From assembly GCA_000004985.1 (NCBI GenBank), contig GG738863.1: DNA of 64,000 nt, one strand, 5' to 3'. Below the pieces are notes generated by a model, which was not told the DNA's origin, ran no database searches, and saw only the letters and a program-made list of their open reading frames with translations. The translations under genes were made by a program, and so were the position numbers. Origin of the DNA: Naegleria gruberi. Its lineage: Eukaryota. This document shows positions 2,124 through 20,102 of the stretch, piece by piece. Each line of letters begins with the position of its first letter. Position 1 is the stretch's first letter.

Positions 2124-4247
2124 ATGTCACCTAAAAATTTCATCTTGGCATGTTGCCTTCTCTTCATCCTTCTCACGAGCTCAACGCTCCTGATCTCCCC
2201 AACACAAAGCAAGGAATCTCCTTCATCTGATTTCGAACTATTGGTCAAACAATTAGTCATCCAAAAAAAACAACTTGGTGACAAGTGGAATCCTAAAAAA
2301 TTTATTCCAACTCGTGTTCGTAAAATAATGAAAAAGCTTGCAATTTCACTTCCAGAAAAATGTGCCAGAAGAGAAAATCAAGTTTCTGATATTTTGATTG
2401 AACAAATTCGTGATTTATCGAAATGTTTTTCTGAAAAGAAGAAATGTCCAAAATTGAATTATGAATTGACTTGTAAATGTGGACAAGAAAGAATTAGAAA
2501 GACTAAATTGGTAAATGGATTGAATTGTCCTTATTTTGAATGTAGAAAGAAGGATCAACCAACTGTTAAATGTCCATTAATTTTCACACAAGATCAGAAA
2601 TGTAAAGAAGGATATTATCAAGTTGTTAAAAAGGTTAAATTTGGAAAATTGGATTGTGATAGAAAGGTTTGTGTCAAGAAGGTTGAAAAATGTCCAGAAA
2701 TTTCAGTCAATTGTGCTGCTGGAGAAACTAGACAAGCTTCCAGAGATGAGAAAGGATGTCCAGTTGTTACTTGTACTAAATTGACTTGTCCACCTGAATT
2801 TACTGACAAGACTAAGGTTAAATGTAGAGATGGATGGACTTTATCTGAACAACAAGTTAATTATCAATCAATTACTTGTAATATGTTGAAATGTGTCAAG
2901 ACTCCATGTCCAAGAGAATTGAGAGAAACTCGTTCTATTAAATGTAAGGTTGGACAAAGAGTTGTCAGAAAGGTTGTCACTATTAATGGAAGAGAATGTG
3001 GTAAATATGAATGTGAAGACATTGTCTGTCCACAAGAATCCAAACCACAATGTGCAGATGGTCAAGTTGCAAGAGAAATTTCAGTTTGGTATCATGGAAA
3101 GAAGTGTAATGCTTTCAGATGTATGCATGATCAATGTCCAACTGTTGAAACAAAGGAATGTAATCCAGAAACTGAACAAGTTAAAGTTTTAACATTCAAG
3201 ACTGATTCTGGATTGACCTGTTATAGACAAGAATGTGAAAAGAAGAAGAAGACTTGTAAGAATGTCTGTGTTAATTATTCTCAAAGAGCTGGCAAATGTG
3301 TCAGATATGAAATGAAAGGAGAACAACAAAGATGTATCAAATGGTCATGGACTGGTTCAAATAACTGTATTGAAGAAAAGATTGTCAATCAATGTGTTAG
3401 ATATGTTCAAGGTGGTCAAACTTGTACCAATAAGAAGGTTGTTACTTCATGTGCTCGTGAAGGAAGCAGACAAGAATGTACCAAATACGGTGAAAAGGAA
3501 GTTTGTGCTGAGAGAGCTGATAAGGCAGTTTGTGAAAGATACAGCACCAGAGTTGTTGGGTGTAACAAGTACAATGAAGTCACTTCATGTGCTCAATGGA
3601 ATTCCATTCCAAAGACCAAATGTAAAGCTGTCAAGTATTGTGTTAAGGAACTTCCATCCAGAACTGAAAAGTACTGTACTGCCTACAAGAAGCAATGTCA
3701 AAAGGGTAAACGTGAAGTTTGTACCACAACTACTTGTCCTTGCAATAAGAAGCCAGTTACCAAGTGTAGAACTTACTACTTTGATGGATGTTGTGAAAGC
3801 AAGTGTCAATCTTGGGCAACTCGTACTGTTCCAGGAAAGTGTACTGCCTATGGATACAAACAAGAATGCACTCCAAATGGAAGTGAACGTGTCTGTGCCA
3901 AATATAAGAGCACAAAGGAATGTGTCTCTCCACGTACTGAAAAGATTTGTACCAGATGGACCAAGACTAGTTCTGAAGTCTGTTCAAAGAAGGAGAAGAT
4001 TAGTGTTTGTTTATCTTCCAAATATACCAAATATTGTGCTGAAACTACTCAAAAGGAAGTTTGTGAATCATGGGCTGTCACCAATGCCAGATGTGCTGAA
4101 TATAAGCAAAGCAAGGTCTGTATCAGAAAGAGTGAAGGTCAAAAGATTTGTCAACAATACCAAAGCTTTGGTGGTGAACAAGTTTGTGTTGAAAAATCAA
4201 AGGAAGATGTTTGTGCCGAATATAAGCAAATGTGTACCTACGAATAA
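2124..4247 (+). CDS. secreted cysteine/lysine-rich repeat protein (707 aa), unknown function
   Basis: Uninterrupted 707-codon ORF. Hydrophobic N-terminal signal-like segment MSPKNFILACCLLFILLTSSTLLISP. A Cys falls about every 8-12 residues throughout, with recurring C-x-E/K-Y-K-x-x-K-x-C units (e.g. CAEYKQSKVC, CAEYKQMC, CTAYKKQCQKGKREVC). AATAAA-like motif just after the stop. Confidence 0.7.
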   Translation: MSPKNFILACCLLFILLTSSTLLISPTQSKESPSSDFELLVKQLVIQKKQLGDKWNPKKFIPTRVRKIMKKLAISLPEKCARRENQVSDILIEQIRDLSKCFSEKKKCPKLNYELTCKCGQERIRKTKLVNGLNCPYFECRKKDQPTVKCPLIFTQDQKCKEGYYQVVKKVKFGKLDCDRKVCVKKVEKCPEISVNCAAGETRQASRDEKGCPVVTCTKLTCPPEFTDKTKVKCRDGWTLSEQQVNYQSITCNMLKCVKTPCPRELRETRSIKCKVGQRVVRKVVTINGRECGKYECEDIVCPQESKPQCADGQVAREISVWYHGKKCNAFRCMHDQCPTVETKECNPETEQVKVLTFKTDSGLTCYRQECEKKKKTCKNVCVNYSQRAGKCVRYEMKGEQQRCIKWSWTGSNNCIEEKIVNQCVRYVQGGQTCTNKKVVTSCAREGSRQECTKYGEKEVCAERADKAVCERYSTRVVGCNKYNEVTSCAQWNSIPKTKCKAVKYCVKELPSRTEKYCTAYKKQCQKGKREVCTTTTCPCNKKPVTKCRTYYFDGCCESKCQSWATRTVPGKCTAYGYKQECTPNGSERVCAKYKSTKECVSPRTEKICTRWTKTSSEVCSKKEKISVCLSSKYTKYCAETTQKEVCESWAVTNARCAEYKQSKVCIRKSEGQKICQQYQSFGGEQVCVEKSKEDVCAEYKQMCTYE

Positions 4248-4299
4248 TTTCCAAGTAATAATAATAAATTGGCAAAAAGTTATTTAAAAGAATTGAATG

Positions 4300-6084
4300 T
4301 TAATGTCTAATATTACAATGAGTCAATATTTTGAGAAACACTTCTTTTGGTACATTTTCAAAGGTCTGTAAATCCTTTTCCATTACTTTTAGAGCAATTT
4401 CAATATCAGTCAACAGTTCATGTGATAAATGAGATAACCTAGTCCCATCTTTAACATATTGTAAATATTGTAAAACCACTTGCTTATCCCTTTGCAATTC
4501 ATAAGAGGCATGTAAAAAACATTCTGTATGTTTTTGGATAGCTGTCATTACAAAATCTCTATCAGCCTTCAATGCAAAAGATGCACTTTTAAATGCATTT
4601 CCATTTTGCTCAATTGCTTGTAAAACAATTTCCTTATCATTTCTCAATTCCTCTGAGGCAAATTCAAGTGCCAATCCATCTTGGTTAACAGCAACTGTTA
4701 CAATTTCCTCATCATTTCTCAATCGCTCAGAAGCGTGTTTGAGTAGAGTTCCTGCTTGACCAACAGCTAGTAACATTAATTCCTTATCATTTTTCTTGTC
4801 CTTACTCGCTTTTCGAAGAGATCCTGTTTTTAATTTGAAAGCTGTCATTAGCAATTCCCTGTCATCTTGTAAATTGAGAGAAGCATAATCAATAGGTTGC
4901 TTACTCCATCGCACAGATCTCGTGTTAATGGCTTGTAAAACTATTTCACGATCATTTCTGAGTTTGGATGATGCGTATTTAAGCGAAATTCCATTTTGAT
5001 TTATGGCAGATAAAACTATCTCCTTATTGTTTTGCAATTCCTTCGAAGCATATTCAAGAGCTAATCCATTTTGACACACAGCTTGTAAGACAATTTTCTT
5101 ATTCTTTTGGAACTCATATGACAAATATTTGAGAGATAGTCCATATAGCTTACAAGCTTGCATTACAATCTCCATATCATTCAATGACCGAGGAGATAAA
5201 TAGAAAACATATCCCTCCCAATTAAGAGCTTTCAAAATTAATTGCTTATCATTCCTCAATTCTTCAGAAGCATATCTTAATGCACCTTCACTTTGATTAA
5301 CAGCTTTCCAAACAAGTTCCCTGTCATTTTTCAATGAATAATTTAAATATTCTGGTTTGTGTCCTTCCTGTAAAATGGCCATCGAAATAACATTATTAGA
5401 AGCAAATCTAATTGCCTCTCCATTTTGTGAAATAGCTCTCAAAACAATACTCTTATCTCTCCTCAACTCTTCACTTGCAAATTCAAGTGCCAATCCATTT
5501 TGTTCAATTGCAATGTCTACAATTGTCTTTTCATTTTGTAATTCTTTATCCGCAAACGCGAGCGCTAATCCATTTTGAGAAAGAGCTTGCCTTACAACTT
5601 CCATATCTTTTTGTAATTCTTTGGAGGTATGGTTGAGAGCTAGCCCATTTTGCTTACAGGCACATATTGCAATTTCCTTATCATTTTTCAAGTCTTCACT
5701 TGCAAGTTGGAGTAATAATCCATTTCGAATAACAGATTGGTTGACTATTTGTTTATCATTTGTAAAATCTTTGAATCTCTTCAAAACATTTATATCATAA
5801 TCCAAAACCCGCAACACAAACGACTTTACAGACCAAAAATTCAGCTTATCTGCAATATACATTCCATTTGATTTTTGTAAATATTCAACAATATATTTAG
5901 CATCTCTCCAATTTATGAATAATTGATCTTTAAGTAATAAATGGGAAAGGATTGGAAAGAAAATTGTTTTAAATTTTAGAGAAGTGGGAACATCTCGGAT
6001 TTGAGTGGTGAGGAGAAGTGATGAATAATTACAATCTAAAATGATTGTGGTGAGTTGACCTCTCATGTTCTCCAAGTTTTCCAT
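4300..6084 (-). CDS. DUF4116-like tandem-repeat protein (594 aa)
   Basis: Continuous ORF. About 15 tandem ~24-aa repeats of the form L(Q/R)NDKEIVLxAIxQNGLAL(E/K)(F/Y)AS with E/K-L-Q/R-N-D-(K/R)-E-I-V periodicity, matching the DUF4116 repeat as I recall it. The N-terminal ~100 aa are non-repetitive. Confidence 0.6.
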   Translation of the reverse strand: MENLENMRGQLTTIILDCNYSSLLLTTQIRDVPTSLKFKTIFFPILSHLLLKDQLFINWRDAKYIVEYLQKSNGMYIADKLNFWSVKSFVLRVLDYDINVLKRFKDFTNDKQIVNQSVIRNGLLLQLASEDLKNDKEIAICACKQNGLALNHTSKELQKDMEVVRQALSQNGLALAFADKELQNEKTIVDIAIEQNGLALEFASEELRRDKSIVLRAISQNGEAIRFASNNVISMAILQEGHKPEYLNYSLKNDRELVWKAVNQSEGALRYASEELRNDKQLILKALNWEGYVFYLSPRSLNDMEIVMQACKLYGLSLKYLSYEFQKNKKIVLQAVCQNGLALEYASKELQNNKEIVLSAINQNGISLKYASSKLRNDREIVLQAINTRSVRWSKQPIDYASLNLQDDRELLMTAFKLKTGSLRKASKDKKNDKELMLLAVGQAGTLLKHASERLRNDEEIVTVAVNQDGLALEFASEELRNDKEIVLQAIEQNGNAFKSASFALKADRDFVMTAIQKHTECFLHASYELQRDKQVVLQYLQYVKDGTRLSHLSHELLTDIEIALKVMEKDLQTFENVPKEVFLKILTHCNIRH

Positions 6085-7171: not shown

Positions 7172-8395
7172 TTAATCATTAAAATTAAGTGCCTTGTGAC
7201 ACATTTTGTGCATGGTCACAACAAGTAATTTCAAATTATAAAGCAATGGTTTGCTAAATTCAGAACTGTACAAATCAAACAAGAACATGCATAATAAGGC
7301 ACATTCCAGAGTACTGGTACGATCCTTCTCTGTTTGTTTTCTGAGTAAATTAAAGATTGGTTCCTTTTGTTGATAGAGATGCACAACTTTGGATTGATCG
7401 AATTTAAGTCTATTAGGGAGATCCTTCTTGTTGCAGAGAGCTTTGAGAACATGCTTGGCTTGTTGCCAAGTACTATCCACAATAATGAGATTAATACTTT
7501 TCATTGGTCGCTTATTGGTGGTTGAGTAGTTCTCTTGGTCTTTCCACATTTCTTTTGATAGGTCCATTTGCTTTTGTTTAATTTGTTCCACAAGTGTTTG
7601 ATCCAAATCGAGAGCATCTTCACTTGGGAAGAGCAAGTAGGTCAACTCTTGTCCATAATATTTCTCCTTAAATTCAATTTCATGAGCTTCTACATCCACT
7701 AGATAAATTTCCACAAATCCCTTTGGTAATGTATCCATCAAAATCTTTCCAGTGTTTGATTTTCTGAAAAATTCCTTGGCATGCATTAGTAGAATAATCT
7801 TTAAACGTGGCTCGTCTGATTGTAATTCAGATGGCTTCTCACAATGTTCACGAACAGAGTTCAATTCCTCGGAAGGTTCTGAAACAAATGTGTCCAAATG
7901 CTTATTCTCTCTCCAAGGGAAAACCATTTGTTTACAAATGCAATAATCAATATTTAACCAACAATATGGACAACAACGAATTGGTGATTGTTTAAATATT
8001 TCATCAATTAAAAAGTAGGCCATTCTTCTCTGAACCGTATAGTATTGTTTCTCCTTGTGTTTTTCCTTTTCGGAGAGTCCAACTCCTTCCTTCTGTGCCT
8101 TCCTAATCATTTCATGATCTTGCTCTGATTTTGGTGTTGGCACTGGAGTCTTGTCTTTTAATTCCTTCAACTGTGGGAAATATTTTGACATGACTCTAAA
8201 CAAGTCATGCTCCCAAAAGTGACAATAATGTGGATTGTGTGGAATACTGAGATGGTGAGTATCATAGAGAGTTTCAAGTTTTGGTTTTTTAGCTTCGGAA
8301 TTTTCAACATGTTGTTGCTGTTCGGAATCATTTGTTGTTGGACTTGCTGAACAACTATGAGATGAAGATGTTTCCTCTGTTGCTTGTCTTTTCAT
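7172..8395 (-). CDS. DTW-domain protein (tRNA-uridine aminocarboxypropyltransferase, DTWD-like), 407 aa
   Basis: Continuous ORF from ATG at 8395. N-terminal Cys cluster CPYCWLNIDYCIC and the signature D-x-T-W motif (LIIVDSTWQQAKHV) typical of DTW/TDD-superfamily acp3U synthases. Confidence 0.65.
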   Translation of the reverse strand: MKRQATEETSSSHSCSASPTTNDSEQQQHVENSEAKKPKLETLYDTHHLSIPHNPHYCHFWEHDLFRVMSKYFPQLKELKDKTPVPTPKSEQDHEMIRKAQKEGVGLSEKEKHKEKQYYTVQRRMAYFLIDEIFKQSPIRCCPYCWLNIDYCICKQMVFPWRENKHLDTFVSEPSEELNSVREHCEKPSELQSDEPRLKIILLMHAKEFFRKSNTGKILMDTLPKGFVEIYLVDVEAHEIEFKEKYYGQELTYLLFPSEDALDLDQTLVEQIKQKQMDLSKEMWKDQENYSTTNKRPMKSINLIIVDSTWQQAKHVLKALCNKKDLPNRLKFDQSKVVHLYQQKEPIFNLLRKQTEKDRTSTLECALLCMFLFDLYSSEFSKPLLYNLKLLVVTMHKMCHKALNFND

Positions 8396-17929: not shown

Positions 17930-19009
17930 ATGCTGTCAGATTCTAATTCCTTCATGATGGAAGATCAACAAATGCCTCCTTCTTCGTCATCTTCTTCTGC
18001 TTCTTCTTCCCCTGCTCCTTCCTCTCCACTTTCACCTCATCATACAGCAACTTTTGAAACAAACATGCTTGATGAATATGGAAGCAGTATCAATCACCCT
18101 TCTAAGCCACTTAACACAACAAATACAGCAACAACAACACTAAATAATGCATCCAACAATAATATAGAACACATGAGATCAGCTGGCAATGATGATTCTT
18201 TACCACCTATTGCTTCCATACCACCAAACAATTCAACTTCTCGTGTTGTTAATGTTGGGCCAATTATGAATGCAATTCAAGCTTATAGTGGTAATAATGG
18301 TAATAGTACACTTGTTGATAATGTAAATGTCAGAATATCCTCCGCCTCATCTTCATGTTCAACCATTTCAGATCATTCTATGAATAATACAATGATTAAT
18401 GGACAAGCACCAAAACCACTTAATGATTTTGAAAATGTATTTGCTAGTTTCAAGAAGAGAAATAGAGAACAATACGAAAATAATAATCAATCCTCGTCAT
18501 CATCTGATCCAGTTTCATATATTAGAGATTTGGAAGATAAAATTGATTTTATGGCACAATTAGTCACTATTCAATCTGCCAAAATGAGAAAGATGGAAAT
18601 GAGATTGAAAAAATTGGAAAACTTACTTCCTCAATCAGGGGATGAATTTGTAAATTCAGGCAATCTTCATCGTATGCCACATAGTGATGAGTTATCATCA
18701 ATTAGTGATGATATACCAACATTTTCAGCACCAAAGAAGGAAAAGGGTAATAGACAACCTAATGCCTATAATATTTTCATGAAGGGAGAAATTCAACGTA
18801 TTCGAACAACTCACACAGAATTAACACAAAAACAGGCATTTAAACTTGCTGCCAATAATTGGACTTTGAAGAAATCTGAAATCCTTGGAGCTTCAAATGG
18901 TTCACAGAAAAAACCAGACGACAGAACTAGCACAGTAAGCACACCTAGTGATACTACCATGGCAGATTCACTTTCTGAAACACCACTCAATCAACTTGAC
19001 GAAAAGTAA
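17930..19009 (+). CDS. nuclear protein with C-terminal YABBY-type (HMG-box-like) DNA-binding domain, 359 aa
   Basis: Continuous ATG ORF. S/N-rich low-complexity N-terminal half and a coiled-coil-like segment. C-terminal RQPNAYNIFMKGEIQRIRTTHTELTQKQAFKLAANNWTL closely follows the YABBY domain pattern P-SAYNRFIKEEIQRIK...H-EAF-AAKNW, within the HMG-box-like fold. Confidence 0.6.
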   Translation: MLSDSNSFMMEDQQMPPSSSSSSASSSPAPSSPLSPHHTATFETNMLDEYGSSINHPSKPLNTTNTATTTLNNASNNNIEHMRSAGNDDSLPPIASIPPNNSTSRVVNVGPIMNAIQAYSGNNGNSTLVDNVNVRISSASSSCSTISDHSMNNTMINGQAPKPLNDFENVFASFKKRNREQYENNNQSSSSSDPVSYIRDLEDKIDFMAQLVTIQSAKMRKMEMRLKKLENLLPQSGDEFVNSGNLHRMPHSDELSSISDDIPTFSAPKKEKGNRQPNAYNIFMKGEIQRIRTTHTELTQKQAFKLAANNWTLKKSEILGASNGSQKKPDDRTSTVSTPSDTTMADSLSETPLNQLDEK

Positions 19010-19280
19010 AGATTTAATTTTTCAAATATGATGACCCATTCATCAGATTTACTATTATCAAGAGTTGACCAACCTGGCCATTCAAAATTTCTATTTCTTC
19101 TAGGAAAGGATGTGGATTGCCTCTTGGATTTGATGAGAAAAAGGTCTTTTTAGATTTTTCAAAGAAAAAGAATCTTCACAACTCATGTTTCCTAATACCA
19201 ACAACATTCAATAATTTATTATCATTTTGCAAAACAGAAATATACTTTAACAGATAATAATATGGCATTCGGATCGTGCG

Positions 19281-20097
19281 NNNNNNNNNNNNNNNNNNNN
19301 NNNNNNNNNNNNNNNNNNNNNNNNNNNNNNNNNNNNNNNNNNNNNNNNNNNNNNNNNNNNNNNNNNNNNNNNNNNNNNNNNNNNNNNNNNNNNNNNNNNN
19401 NNNNNNNNNNNNNNNNNNNNNNNNNNNNNNNNNNNNNNNNNNNNNNNNNNNNNNNNNNNNNNNNNNNNNNNNNNNNNNNNNNNNNNNNNNNNNNNNNNNN
19501 NNNNNNNNNNNNNNNNNNNNNNNNNNNNNNNNNNNNNNNNNNNNNNNNNNNNNNNNNNNNNNNNNNNNNNNNNNNNNNNNNNNNNNNNNNNNNNNNNNNN
19601 NNNNNNNNNNNNNNNNNNNNNNNNNNNNNNNNNNNNNNNNNNNNNNNNNNNNNNNNNNNNNNNNNNNNNNNNNNNNNNNNNNNNNNNNNNNNNNNNNNNN
19701 NNNNNNNNNNNNNNNNNNNNNNNNNNNNNNNNNNNNNNNNNNNNNNNNNNNNNNNNNNNNNNNNNNNNNNNNNNNNNNNNNNNNNNNNNNNNNNNNNNNN
19801 NNNNNNNNNNNNNNNNNNNNNNNNNNNNNNNNNNNNNNNNNNNNNNNNNNNNNNNNNNNNNNNNNNNNNNNNNNNNNNNNNNNNNNNNNNNNNNNNNNNN
19901 NNNNNNNNNNNNNNNNNNNNNNNNNNNNNNNNNNNNNNNNNNNNNNNNNNNNNNNNNNNNNNNNNNNNNNNNNNNNNNNNNNNNNNNNNNNNNNNNNNNN
20001 NNNNNNNNNNNNNNNNNNNNNNNNNNNNNNNNNNNNNNNNNNNNNNNNNNNNNNNNNNNNNNNNNNNNNNNNNNNNNNNNNNNNNNNNNNNNNNNNN
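19281..20097. other. assembly gap (817 N)
   Basis: Run of n characters. ORFs reported inside it are artefacts. Confidence 0.99.
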
Positions 20098-20102
20098 ATT
20101 TA

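Follow-up and report, generated by a model that had tools for sequence, protein, structure and literature searches.

Secreted, cysteine-rich repeat proteins of protist walls are the closest described systems to the protein considered here, which is encoded at positions 2124 to 4247 of a 64,000-nucleotide stretch of Naegleria gruberi DNA (contig GG738863.1; the whole stretch is referred to below as the window). In the apicomplexan oocyst wall proteins (OWPs), cysteines lie at a regular spacing and are assumed to form disulfides that stabilise the wall, and the repeats, whether of type I or of type II, carry six regularly spaced cysteines each (PMC4514997). The Leo lectins of Acanthamoeba and the Jacob lectins of Entamoeba are secreted proteins with tandem, lineage-specific cysteine domains, some with Thr/Lys-rich spacers, and both Leo (8-Cys) and Jacob (6-Cys) are abundant structural lectins of the cyst wall (PMC6541295). 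We consider it somewhat better than even, at a probability of roughly 0.55, that the window protein is an extracellular structural or binding (cross-linking) protein of the amoeba; that it resides specifically in the cyst wall is a tentative proposal, drawn by analogy with these systems.

The 707-amino-acid (aa) product is a 100% match over its full length to N. gruberi NAEGRDRAFT_57793 (P0001), which carries the database label "hypothetical protein." Sequence comparison shows it to be a mosaic: its three modules evolve separately, and each also stands alone in other proteins. Its parts are the following:

2124..4247, + strand: complete single-exon coding sequence with an ATG start, 707 codons plus stop (open reading frame [ORF] list and translation)
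2124..2207, + strand: signal-peptide-like N terminus, about residues 1-28, with its core at 6-24 and putative cleavage near SPTQS/KE (hydropathy scan)
2226..2444, + strand: N-terminal head domain, about residues 35-107, predicted helical, with two conserved cysteines, C80 and C101 (alignment, profile matches, AlphaFold2 model)
2445..3254, + strand: zone A, seven tandem 4-Cys modules, residues 108-377 (module list and alignment)
2445-2570, 2571-2690, 2691-2786 and 2787-2906, + strand: zone A modules 1-4 (module list)
2907-3026, 3027-3134 and 3135-3254, + strand: zone A modules 5-7 (module list)
3255..4244, + strand: zone B, a 330-residue Lys/Tyr-rich array, residues 378-707, with 39 cysteines at C-x(8-11)-C spacing (unit list, alignment)

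Like COWP, TgOWP and EnOWP, the window protein appears to be secreted, has a cysteine content of about 10% and consists of tandem repeats with regular cysteines; COWP1 also resembles it in size and in having two types of repeat. The repeat units themselves differ, however, with six cysteines in the OWPs against four per 32-42 aa in zone A and one per 9-12 aa in zone B, and the type II repeats of COWP alternate with His-rich stretches, whereas the window protein is strongly Lys-rich (99 of 707 residues, 14%). When 1.84 billion representative proteins were searched with a profile built from the two closest sequences, there were only 16 matches, most of them spanning just one third of the query. 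Homology to COWP or TgOWP was not detected in this way, and the ten matches whose source was looked up were Naegleria proteins or environmental sequences, none of them apicomplexan; no direct pairwise comparison with COWP was made. Leo and Jacob have a signal peptide, which is putative in the window protein, and share with it the lack of a transmembrane or glycosylphosphatidylinositol (GPI) anchor and Cys-rich tandem domains restricted to one protist lineage. They differ in having two to a few domains of six to eight cysteines in 19-59 kDa, compared with approximately 46 units in 78 kDa here, and the profile search detected no homology to either. By these comparisons, the window protein is a member of neither the OWPs nor the amoebal cyst-wall lectin group.

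The gene at 2124-4247 is real and under purifying selection. Its reading frame is uninterrupted, and three full-length orthologs from uncultured or unassigned sources (P0002, P0003, and P0019, representing at least two other genomes or metagenomes) keep the same three-part order and are collinear with it, without a frameshift, along the whole chain, beginning at the signal peptide and closing with a common C-terminal "...C[TA]YE." P0002 is 740 aa long with 51-53% protein identity to the window protein, and P0003 and P0019 are 713 and 742 aa long with 44% identity. The window gene and that of P0002 are 65% identical at the DNA level. Their proteins agree at 69 of the 70 mature cysteines, although overall protein identity is only about 50%; among the abundant residues, proline (84%) and glycine (80%) come next in conservation. 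The ratio of nonsynonymous to synonymous substitution rates (dN/dS) for this pair is 0.38-0.54. Retention of the cysteines at such divergence, together with this ratio, is the reason for concluding that purifying selection acts on the cysteine framework. Long ORFs in other frames overlap the gene (e.g., 3370-4287, 305 aa) and are by-products. No synteny beyond the gene itself was seen between the window and the ortholog contig L001, and no paralog of the gene was found within the window.

The N terminus has the layout of a signal peptide, with a short charged start (MSPKN), a long hydrophobic core of about 19 residues and then the SPTQS/KE segment. In a hydropathy scan by 19-residue windows, strong hydrophobicity (Kyte-Doolittle 2.6) was confined to this core. 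Equivalent N termini are present in the three orthologs and in the zone-B paralogs, and the segment is only 25% identical to that of P0002, as expected for signal peptides. Cleavage is putative, and secretion by the classical pathway is probable. The same scan revealed no second hydrophobic stretch or GPI-type tail before the C-terminal end, ...CTYE; the protein has no membrane anchor and is soluble. The mature chain of 679 aa (77.9 kDa, isoelectric point [pI] 9.2, net charge about +59) contains 98 Lys, 39 Arg, 78 Asp plus Glu, and 48 aromatic residues, and its relatives are all basic as well, with pI values of 9.2-11.6. Of 72 cysteines in total, the signal peptide contains two, both non-conserved, and the even number of 70 remain in the mature part, where they form one CC and two C-x-C; there are two His in total. 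Since the cysteine framework is conserved, metal-binding motifs are absent, and His is nearly absent, we infer that the 70 mature cysteines form disulfides.

Within zone A, the repeating unit is CP-x(5-10)-C-x2-G-x(~13)-G-x2-C-x4-C-x4, with a length of 32-42 residues, and the C, P, C, C, and C positions are invariant in the module alignment. C-x4-C occurs 11 times, compared with a mean of 1.9 and a maximum of 8 in shuffled sequences, and "CP" occurs nine times (shuffle mean 1.5, maximum 6). A hidden Markov model built from 18 non-Naegleria modules matched zone A with 41.9 bits (E 9e-12), against control maxima of 7.4 bits in 2000 shuffles and 13.9 bits in 2000 Cys-fixed shuffles, and in the reciprocal direction the profile search of the 1.84 billion proteins recovered P0006 (E 1.4e-16) and P0007 (E 2.3e-13). 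As the profile came from the other members, these matches place zone A in an undescribed family of 4-Cys CP hairpin modules. A very regular, Arg-rich form of the module makes up P0006, P0007, P0013, P0016, and P0018, which resemble zone A in their tandem units of about 36 aa (CP-x6-C-x2-G-x13-G-x2-C-x4-C), basic character, and N-terminal hydrophobic segments. They differ from the window protein in being rich in Arg rather than Lys, in having three to nine modules, and in lacking both the head domain and zone B.

The origin of P0006, P0007, and P0013 is unassigned, and P0016 and P0018 lie on dense, prokaryote-type contigs. P0018 is encoded with 100% identity in a Myxococcota metagenome-assembled genome (MAG), and a 52% identical relative is encoded in a Myxococcales MAG. 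The bacterial 4-Cys module proteins are the following:

L002, 4797-5315 / L008, 5001-5516 (Myxococcota MAG JAKLKB010000104.1)
L009 (Myxococcales MAG JACKEL010000004.1)

Each of these proteins has three 36-aa zone-A-type modules, an extreme Arg content, and an N-terminal hydrophobic segment, and the Myxococcota-type proteins have almost no acidic residues and a pI of 11.2-11.6 (about 11-11.6). The neighbours of the Myxococcota homolog had no Pfam domains except for an RNase R gene and were uninformative.

Zone B is a repeat system of a different kind, in which the frequent unit is C-[VAT]-[RKE]-[YW]-x4-V-C. Of its 38 Cys-Cys gaps, 71% measure 9-12 residues, whereas 10,000 shuffles averaged 14.6% and never exceeded 39%. 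Among the 9-12-residue units, 15 have Tyr or Trp at the Cys+3 position; when all 39 units are counted, 18 have an aromatic residue (Y/W/F) there. The centre of the array, at residues 500-561, is denser in cysteine (CPC, CC), and the most widely conserved core is formed by the C-terminal 100 residues or so, ending in "..C..[KR]S.G..[IV]C..[YF]...GG...C." The initial annotation, made from the sequence without database searches, had described a 707-aa secreted protein with a signal-peptide-like N terminus, followed by some 80 cysteines in one loose repeat of C-x(8-12)-C periodicity. The ORF and the N terminus stand, and internal repeats are indeed present beyond what shuffling yields. The cysteine count falls to 72, and the single loose repeat is replaced by a head domain and two different repeat systems; the periodicity holds for residues 378-707 and fails for residues 108-377, where the 4-Cys modules lie. 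The C-A/T-E/A-Y-K..C unit that it singled out is real and corresponds to the zone B units with Tyr or Trp at Cys+3.

Relatives of zone B are found in other Naegleria species. The array is collinear over about 330 residues with N. lovaniensis C9374_009239 (P0005; profile E 1.2e-16) and N. fowleri FDP41_004030 (P0008; E 4e-13), and also with P0017 and P0012. In phmmer searches, P0005 and P0008 scored 64-65 bits on zone B, compared with at most 16.9 bits in Cys-fixed shuffles. Because the Cys-fixed shuffle maxima are far lower than the scores obtained, the matches to zone A and to zone B reflect homology and not an artefact of composition or cysteine spacing, and zone B belongs to an undescribed Naegleria family of C-x9-C Lys/Tyr arrays. 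The motif with which it starts (C...C..Y....GKC..Y...G....C) and its core at the C terminus (S.G..[IV]C..[YF]...GG...C) recur in FDP41_004030 and C9374_009239, both of which have signal peptides. Unlike the window protein, these two uncharacterised proteins have neither a head domain nor a zone A, and they contain additional Tyr-Lys-Pro repeats; short DSYKP and PDPYAPP repeats are present in P0005, P0008, and P0017. Such Tyr-Lys-Pro repeats are of a kind found in cross-linked wall and adhesive proteins.

Two apparent fusions of zone B to other domains are probably artefacts. NAEGRDRAFT_76199 (P0015), which lies outside the window, is a SAM-PB1 protein with a zone-B-like Lys/Cys tail of 130 aa at its end. 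A near-identical environmental protein, P0022, departs from P0015 right after "...NDKLIKYV"; having shared the N-terminal part, it runs into PAS domains, and the fusion of zone B to a cytosolic SAM-PB1 protein was discarded on this ground. NAEGRDRAFT_76199 is probably a chimeric gene model that conceals a separate, small zone-B-type gene of N. gruberi. A fusion of zone B to RCC1 (P0014) is presumed to be a similar chimera.

The head domain is defined by the pattern "QLGDKWNP...P.R.RK..KKL.I.LP.KC.RR....I..L..C," which includes a KWNP motif, and an alignment of six proteins has 17 invariant columns. In the profile search, three proteins matched this part alone: P0009 (E 2e-12), P0010 (E 1e-11), and P0011 (E 2e-9). 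In P0009, the head domain is followed by a Pro/Thr-rich tail, and in P0010 and P0011 (N. fowleri FDP41_011818) it is followed by a Pro-rich linker and a C-terminal "RGDPHY" region. The linkers of P0010 and P0011 are long and are Arg-rich as well as Pro-rich. The RGDPHY region of P0011 gave the sole VWD match among the head-domain relatives, a weak Pfam match (E 5e-4) whose 20.9 bits fall under the cutoff of 22.9. GDPH is an autocatalytic cleavage motif in VWD- and RGM-type domains, and P0010 and P0011 may be self-cleaving matrix proteins in Naegleria. The window protein itself has no VWD match in Pfam and no GDPH motif in its sequence, and thus shows neither hallmark of the VWD-domain proteins (mucin, vWF, RGM-like).

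The absence of a recognisable family, as reported by the initial annotation, is borne out, and hits to known Cys-rich families that could have overturned it were sought in Pfam, NCBIfam, and the PDB and were not found. A Pfam-A hmmscan of the 707-aa protein returned no families even at E<=1, with EGF, TIL, Kazal, VWC, TNFR, antistasin, granulin, CBM14, and DUF4215 included, and NCBIfam contained no match. Among relatives, P0005-P0008 and P0013 had no Pfam match except for a sub-threshold cEGF fragment in P0007, and two further relatives, both probably chimeric as gene models, matched domains of an unrelated kind. The PDB was searched by sequence and by profile, using the whole protein, each of the two zones, and a single module as queries, and no entry scored below E=1. 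The three sequence modules, being absent from Pfam and NCBIfam, are new to databases, and the overall class of protein is familiar.

AlphaFold2 modelling with a 15-sequence alignment predicted helices in the head at residues 36-54, 57-60, 63-71, and 86-102, with mean predicted local distance difference test (pLDDT) scores of 50-74 in 10-residue blocks. In zone A, one beta-hairpin with two strands of about 10 residues was predicted per module; block means were mostly 67-91 and were lower in the first and last modules. Long strands were predicted in zone B at residues 468-614, with block means of 53-71. A 2-sequence alignment gave a pLDDT of 44.6 and an unusable model. A Foldseek comparison of the model with the PDB, a check that the initial annotation had proposed, yielded no significant match (best E 0.15, template modelling [TM] score about 0.05); the best-ranked entries, stems of pore-forming toxins, were rejected as generic long beta-hairpins. 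A fold search of BFVD returned only fibre- and collagen-like noise with TM scores below 0.1. Provisionally, the window protein would have no known fold; when a chain of 707 residues with an elongated shape is searched as a whole, modules of 40 aa are easily missed, and the model is of moderate quality. The cysteines showed no informative mirror symmetry around the predicted hairpin turns (6 coincidences versus a null mean of 5.8 in gap-order shuffles), so that this test does not bear on cross-strand disulfide ladders.

The function that we favour can be laid out as a series of steps. The protein would enter the secretory pathway by means of its N-terminal signal peptide, and its 70 mature cysteines would be oxidised into disulfides within the molecule and, probably, between molecules as well. 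This would yield an elongated, rod-like chain with a helical head, approximately seven stapled hairpins, and a long, Lys/Tyr-rich C-x9-C beta-ribbon array. Its cationic surface, rich in Lys/Arg and Tyr, could then bind anionic or polysaccharide wall material, with disulfides locking the protein in place. Its parts fit a matrix-type context because the head domain is common to secreted proteins of the Pro-rich and VWD-like type and because Tyr-Lys-Pro repeats occur in the zone-B paralogs; a role in the extracellular matrix is thus inferred. The cyst wall is the main extracellular structure built by Naegleria and is for this reason the leading candidate site. A bolder version, in which zone B is a new fibrous fold of long antiparallel beta-ribbons with a disulfide ladder every 9-10 residues, forming the scaffold of the cyst wall together with the 4-Cys hairpins, strikes us as speculative. 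If that scaffold existed, the 4-Cys module would exemplify the exchange of a disulfide-rich extracellular module between amoebae and the predatory Myxococcota, which we regard as equally conjectural.

Several observations weigh against an extracellular structural role or against its placement in the cyst wall. No carbohydrate-binding or other functional domain was detected with Pfam or NCBIfam. The structural model is moderate as a whole (mean pLDDT 62, predicted TM score 0.26), with residues 374-468 below a pLDDT of 50. In N. fowleri and N. lovaniensis, the profile search found zone-B-only and head-domain-only relatives and not the full three-part protein. The parts apparently lie on separate genes in these species, and the three-part fusion is therefore specific to an N. 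gruberi-like lineage; in such a form, the protein is consequently not a universal component of the Naegleria wall. The searchable literature contained no expression, proteomic, or localisation data for the gene or its relatives, no Naegleria cyst-wall proteome or expression table that includes the gene, and no paper in which a protein of the Naegleria cyst wall or extracellular matrix is named.

Among the alternatives, the one that fares best, although we consider it improbable, is that the protein is not a wall component but a secreted cationic effector that would bind microbial surfaces, either to agglutinate or capture prey or as an antimicrobial of this bacterivorous amoeba. Disulfide-stabilised cationic beta-hairpins are a general design of many host-defence peptides, and the disulfide-stapled basic hairpins would bind anionic bacterial envelopes. 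The net charge of about +59 at a pI of 9.2, the basic character of all relatives, and the extreme form that this takes in the nearly acid-free Myxococcota-type proteins are consistent with such a role, and Myxococcota are themselves predators. However, at 78 kDa and with about 46 repeat units, the protein is far above the size of typical antimicrobial peptides, and neither processing sites nor an amphipathic pattern was seen, although no search was aimed at either. The head domain, common to proteins with Pro-rich linkers and VWD-like regions, also points to a matrix context rather than to an effector.

Less likely still is an adhesive for the substrate or for other cells, a glue-like coat of the trophozoite surface with the Lys/Tyr/Cys chemistry of mussel foot proteins. 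Lys, Tyr/Trp, and Cys are abundant in zone B, and the DSYKP and PDPYAPP repeats of its paralogs are reminiscent of the Tyr-Lys-Pro decapeptides of adhesives. Those repeats are absent from the window protein itself, however, which also has no cell-surface anchor, no sign of Tyr modification, and no homology to adhesive families in Pfam or the profile search. The initial annotation had offered an extracellular structural or adhesive protein as one interpretation, and this general reading is still the best one, with the structural or cross-linking side of it favoured here.

Its other suggestion, a metal-binding protein, taken here to be of the metallothionein or zinc-ribbon type with cysteines as ligands, has lost nearly all plausibility. 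High cysteine content, here 10%, is the only feature that the window protein has in common with metallothioneins, which are small, cytosolic, and aromatic-poor, with C-x-C, C-C, or C-x-x-C motifs in clusters. All of this is foreign to a 78-kDa protein with 48 aromatic residues and a probable signal peptide leading into the oxidising secretory pathway, in which cysteines occur singly every 9-10 residues or as C-x4-C on one strand, with one CC, two C-x-C, and only two His. Pfam gave no metallothionein or zinc-finger match, and P0015, which had seemed to set zone B in a cytosolic protein, looks like a chimeric gene model. Weakest of all, and effectively refuted by the pattern of conservation, is a spurious, untranscribed ORF predicted by artefact in low-complexity DNA: the bare database label, the lack of transcript evidence in the searchable literature (which speaks neither way), and the long overlapping ORFs would be compatible with it, but the presence, in no fewer than two other genomes or metagenomes, of collinear orthologs (713-742 aa) with 44-53% protein identity, the retention of 69 of 70 mature cysteines in P0002 at 65% DNA identity with a dN/dS of about 0.4-0.5, and independent homologs with strong shuffle controls for each module make it unlikely in the extreme.

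Cysts are the environmentally resistant stage of Naegleria, a genus that includes the pathogen N. fowleri. If zone B and the 4-Cys hairpins did form the scaffold of the cyst wall, the protein would be, to our knowledge, the first molecularly defined cyst-wall protein of a heterolobosean. Together with its relatives in N. fowleri and N. lovaniensis, the gene is a concrete cyst-wall candidate, and these proteins, if they are wall components, would be potential diagnostic targets, as in Acanthamoeba, Giardia, and Entamoeba. Whatever the function, one of the three new modules is common to a eukaryote and Myxococcota, and the analysis hints at an unusual architecture of disulfide-laddered beta-ribbons. 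Should the protein prove to be scarce and just another of the secreted Cys-rich proteins peculiar to one lineage, there would be nothing out of the ordinary in it.

Elsewhere in the window, a 359-aa ORF at 17930-19009 (+ strand) clearly matches the YABBY C-terminal domain of Pfam (PF04690) at residues 269-312, "NAYNIFMKGEIQRIRTTH...AANNW," with an E of 9.4e-13 and 48.8 bits, the cutoff being 28.6. YABBY is generally regarded as a transcription-factor domain of the plant lineage, and its occurrence in a heterolobosean amoeba may deserve a closer look. A run of N at about 19280-20100, an assembly gap, gives rise to artefactual "ORFs" of 280-320 X residues on both strands and is the cause of an apparent dip in GC content to 0.217 in the 18-20 kb bin. 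The convergent downstream neighbour of the Cys-rich gene, at 4300-6084 (- strand), encodes 594 aa that consist almost wholly of 14 DUF4116 repeats (Pfam E 6e-151), and no link between the two genes is evident. Farther along, at 7172-8395 (- strand), lies a gene whose 407-aa product contains a DTW domain (PF03942, E 1.7e-23), the domain of the tRNA-modifying DTW family.

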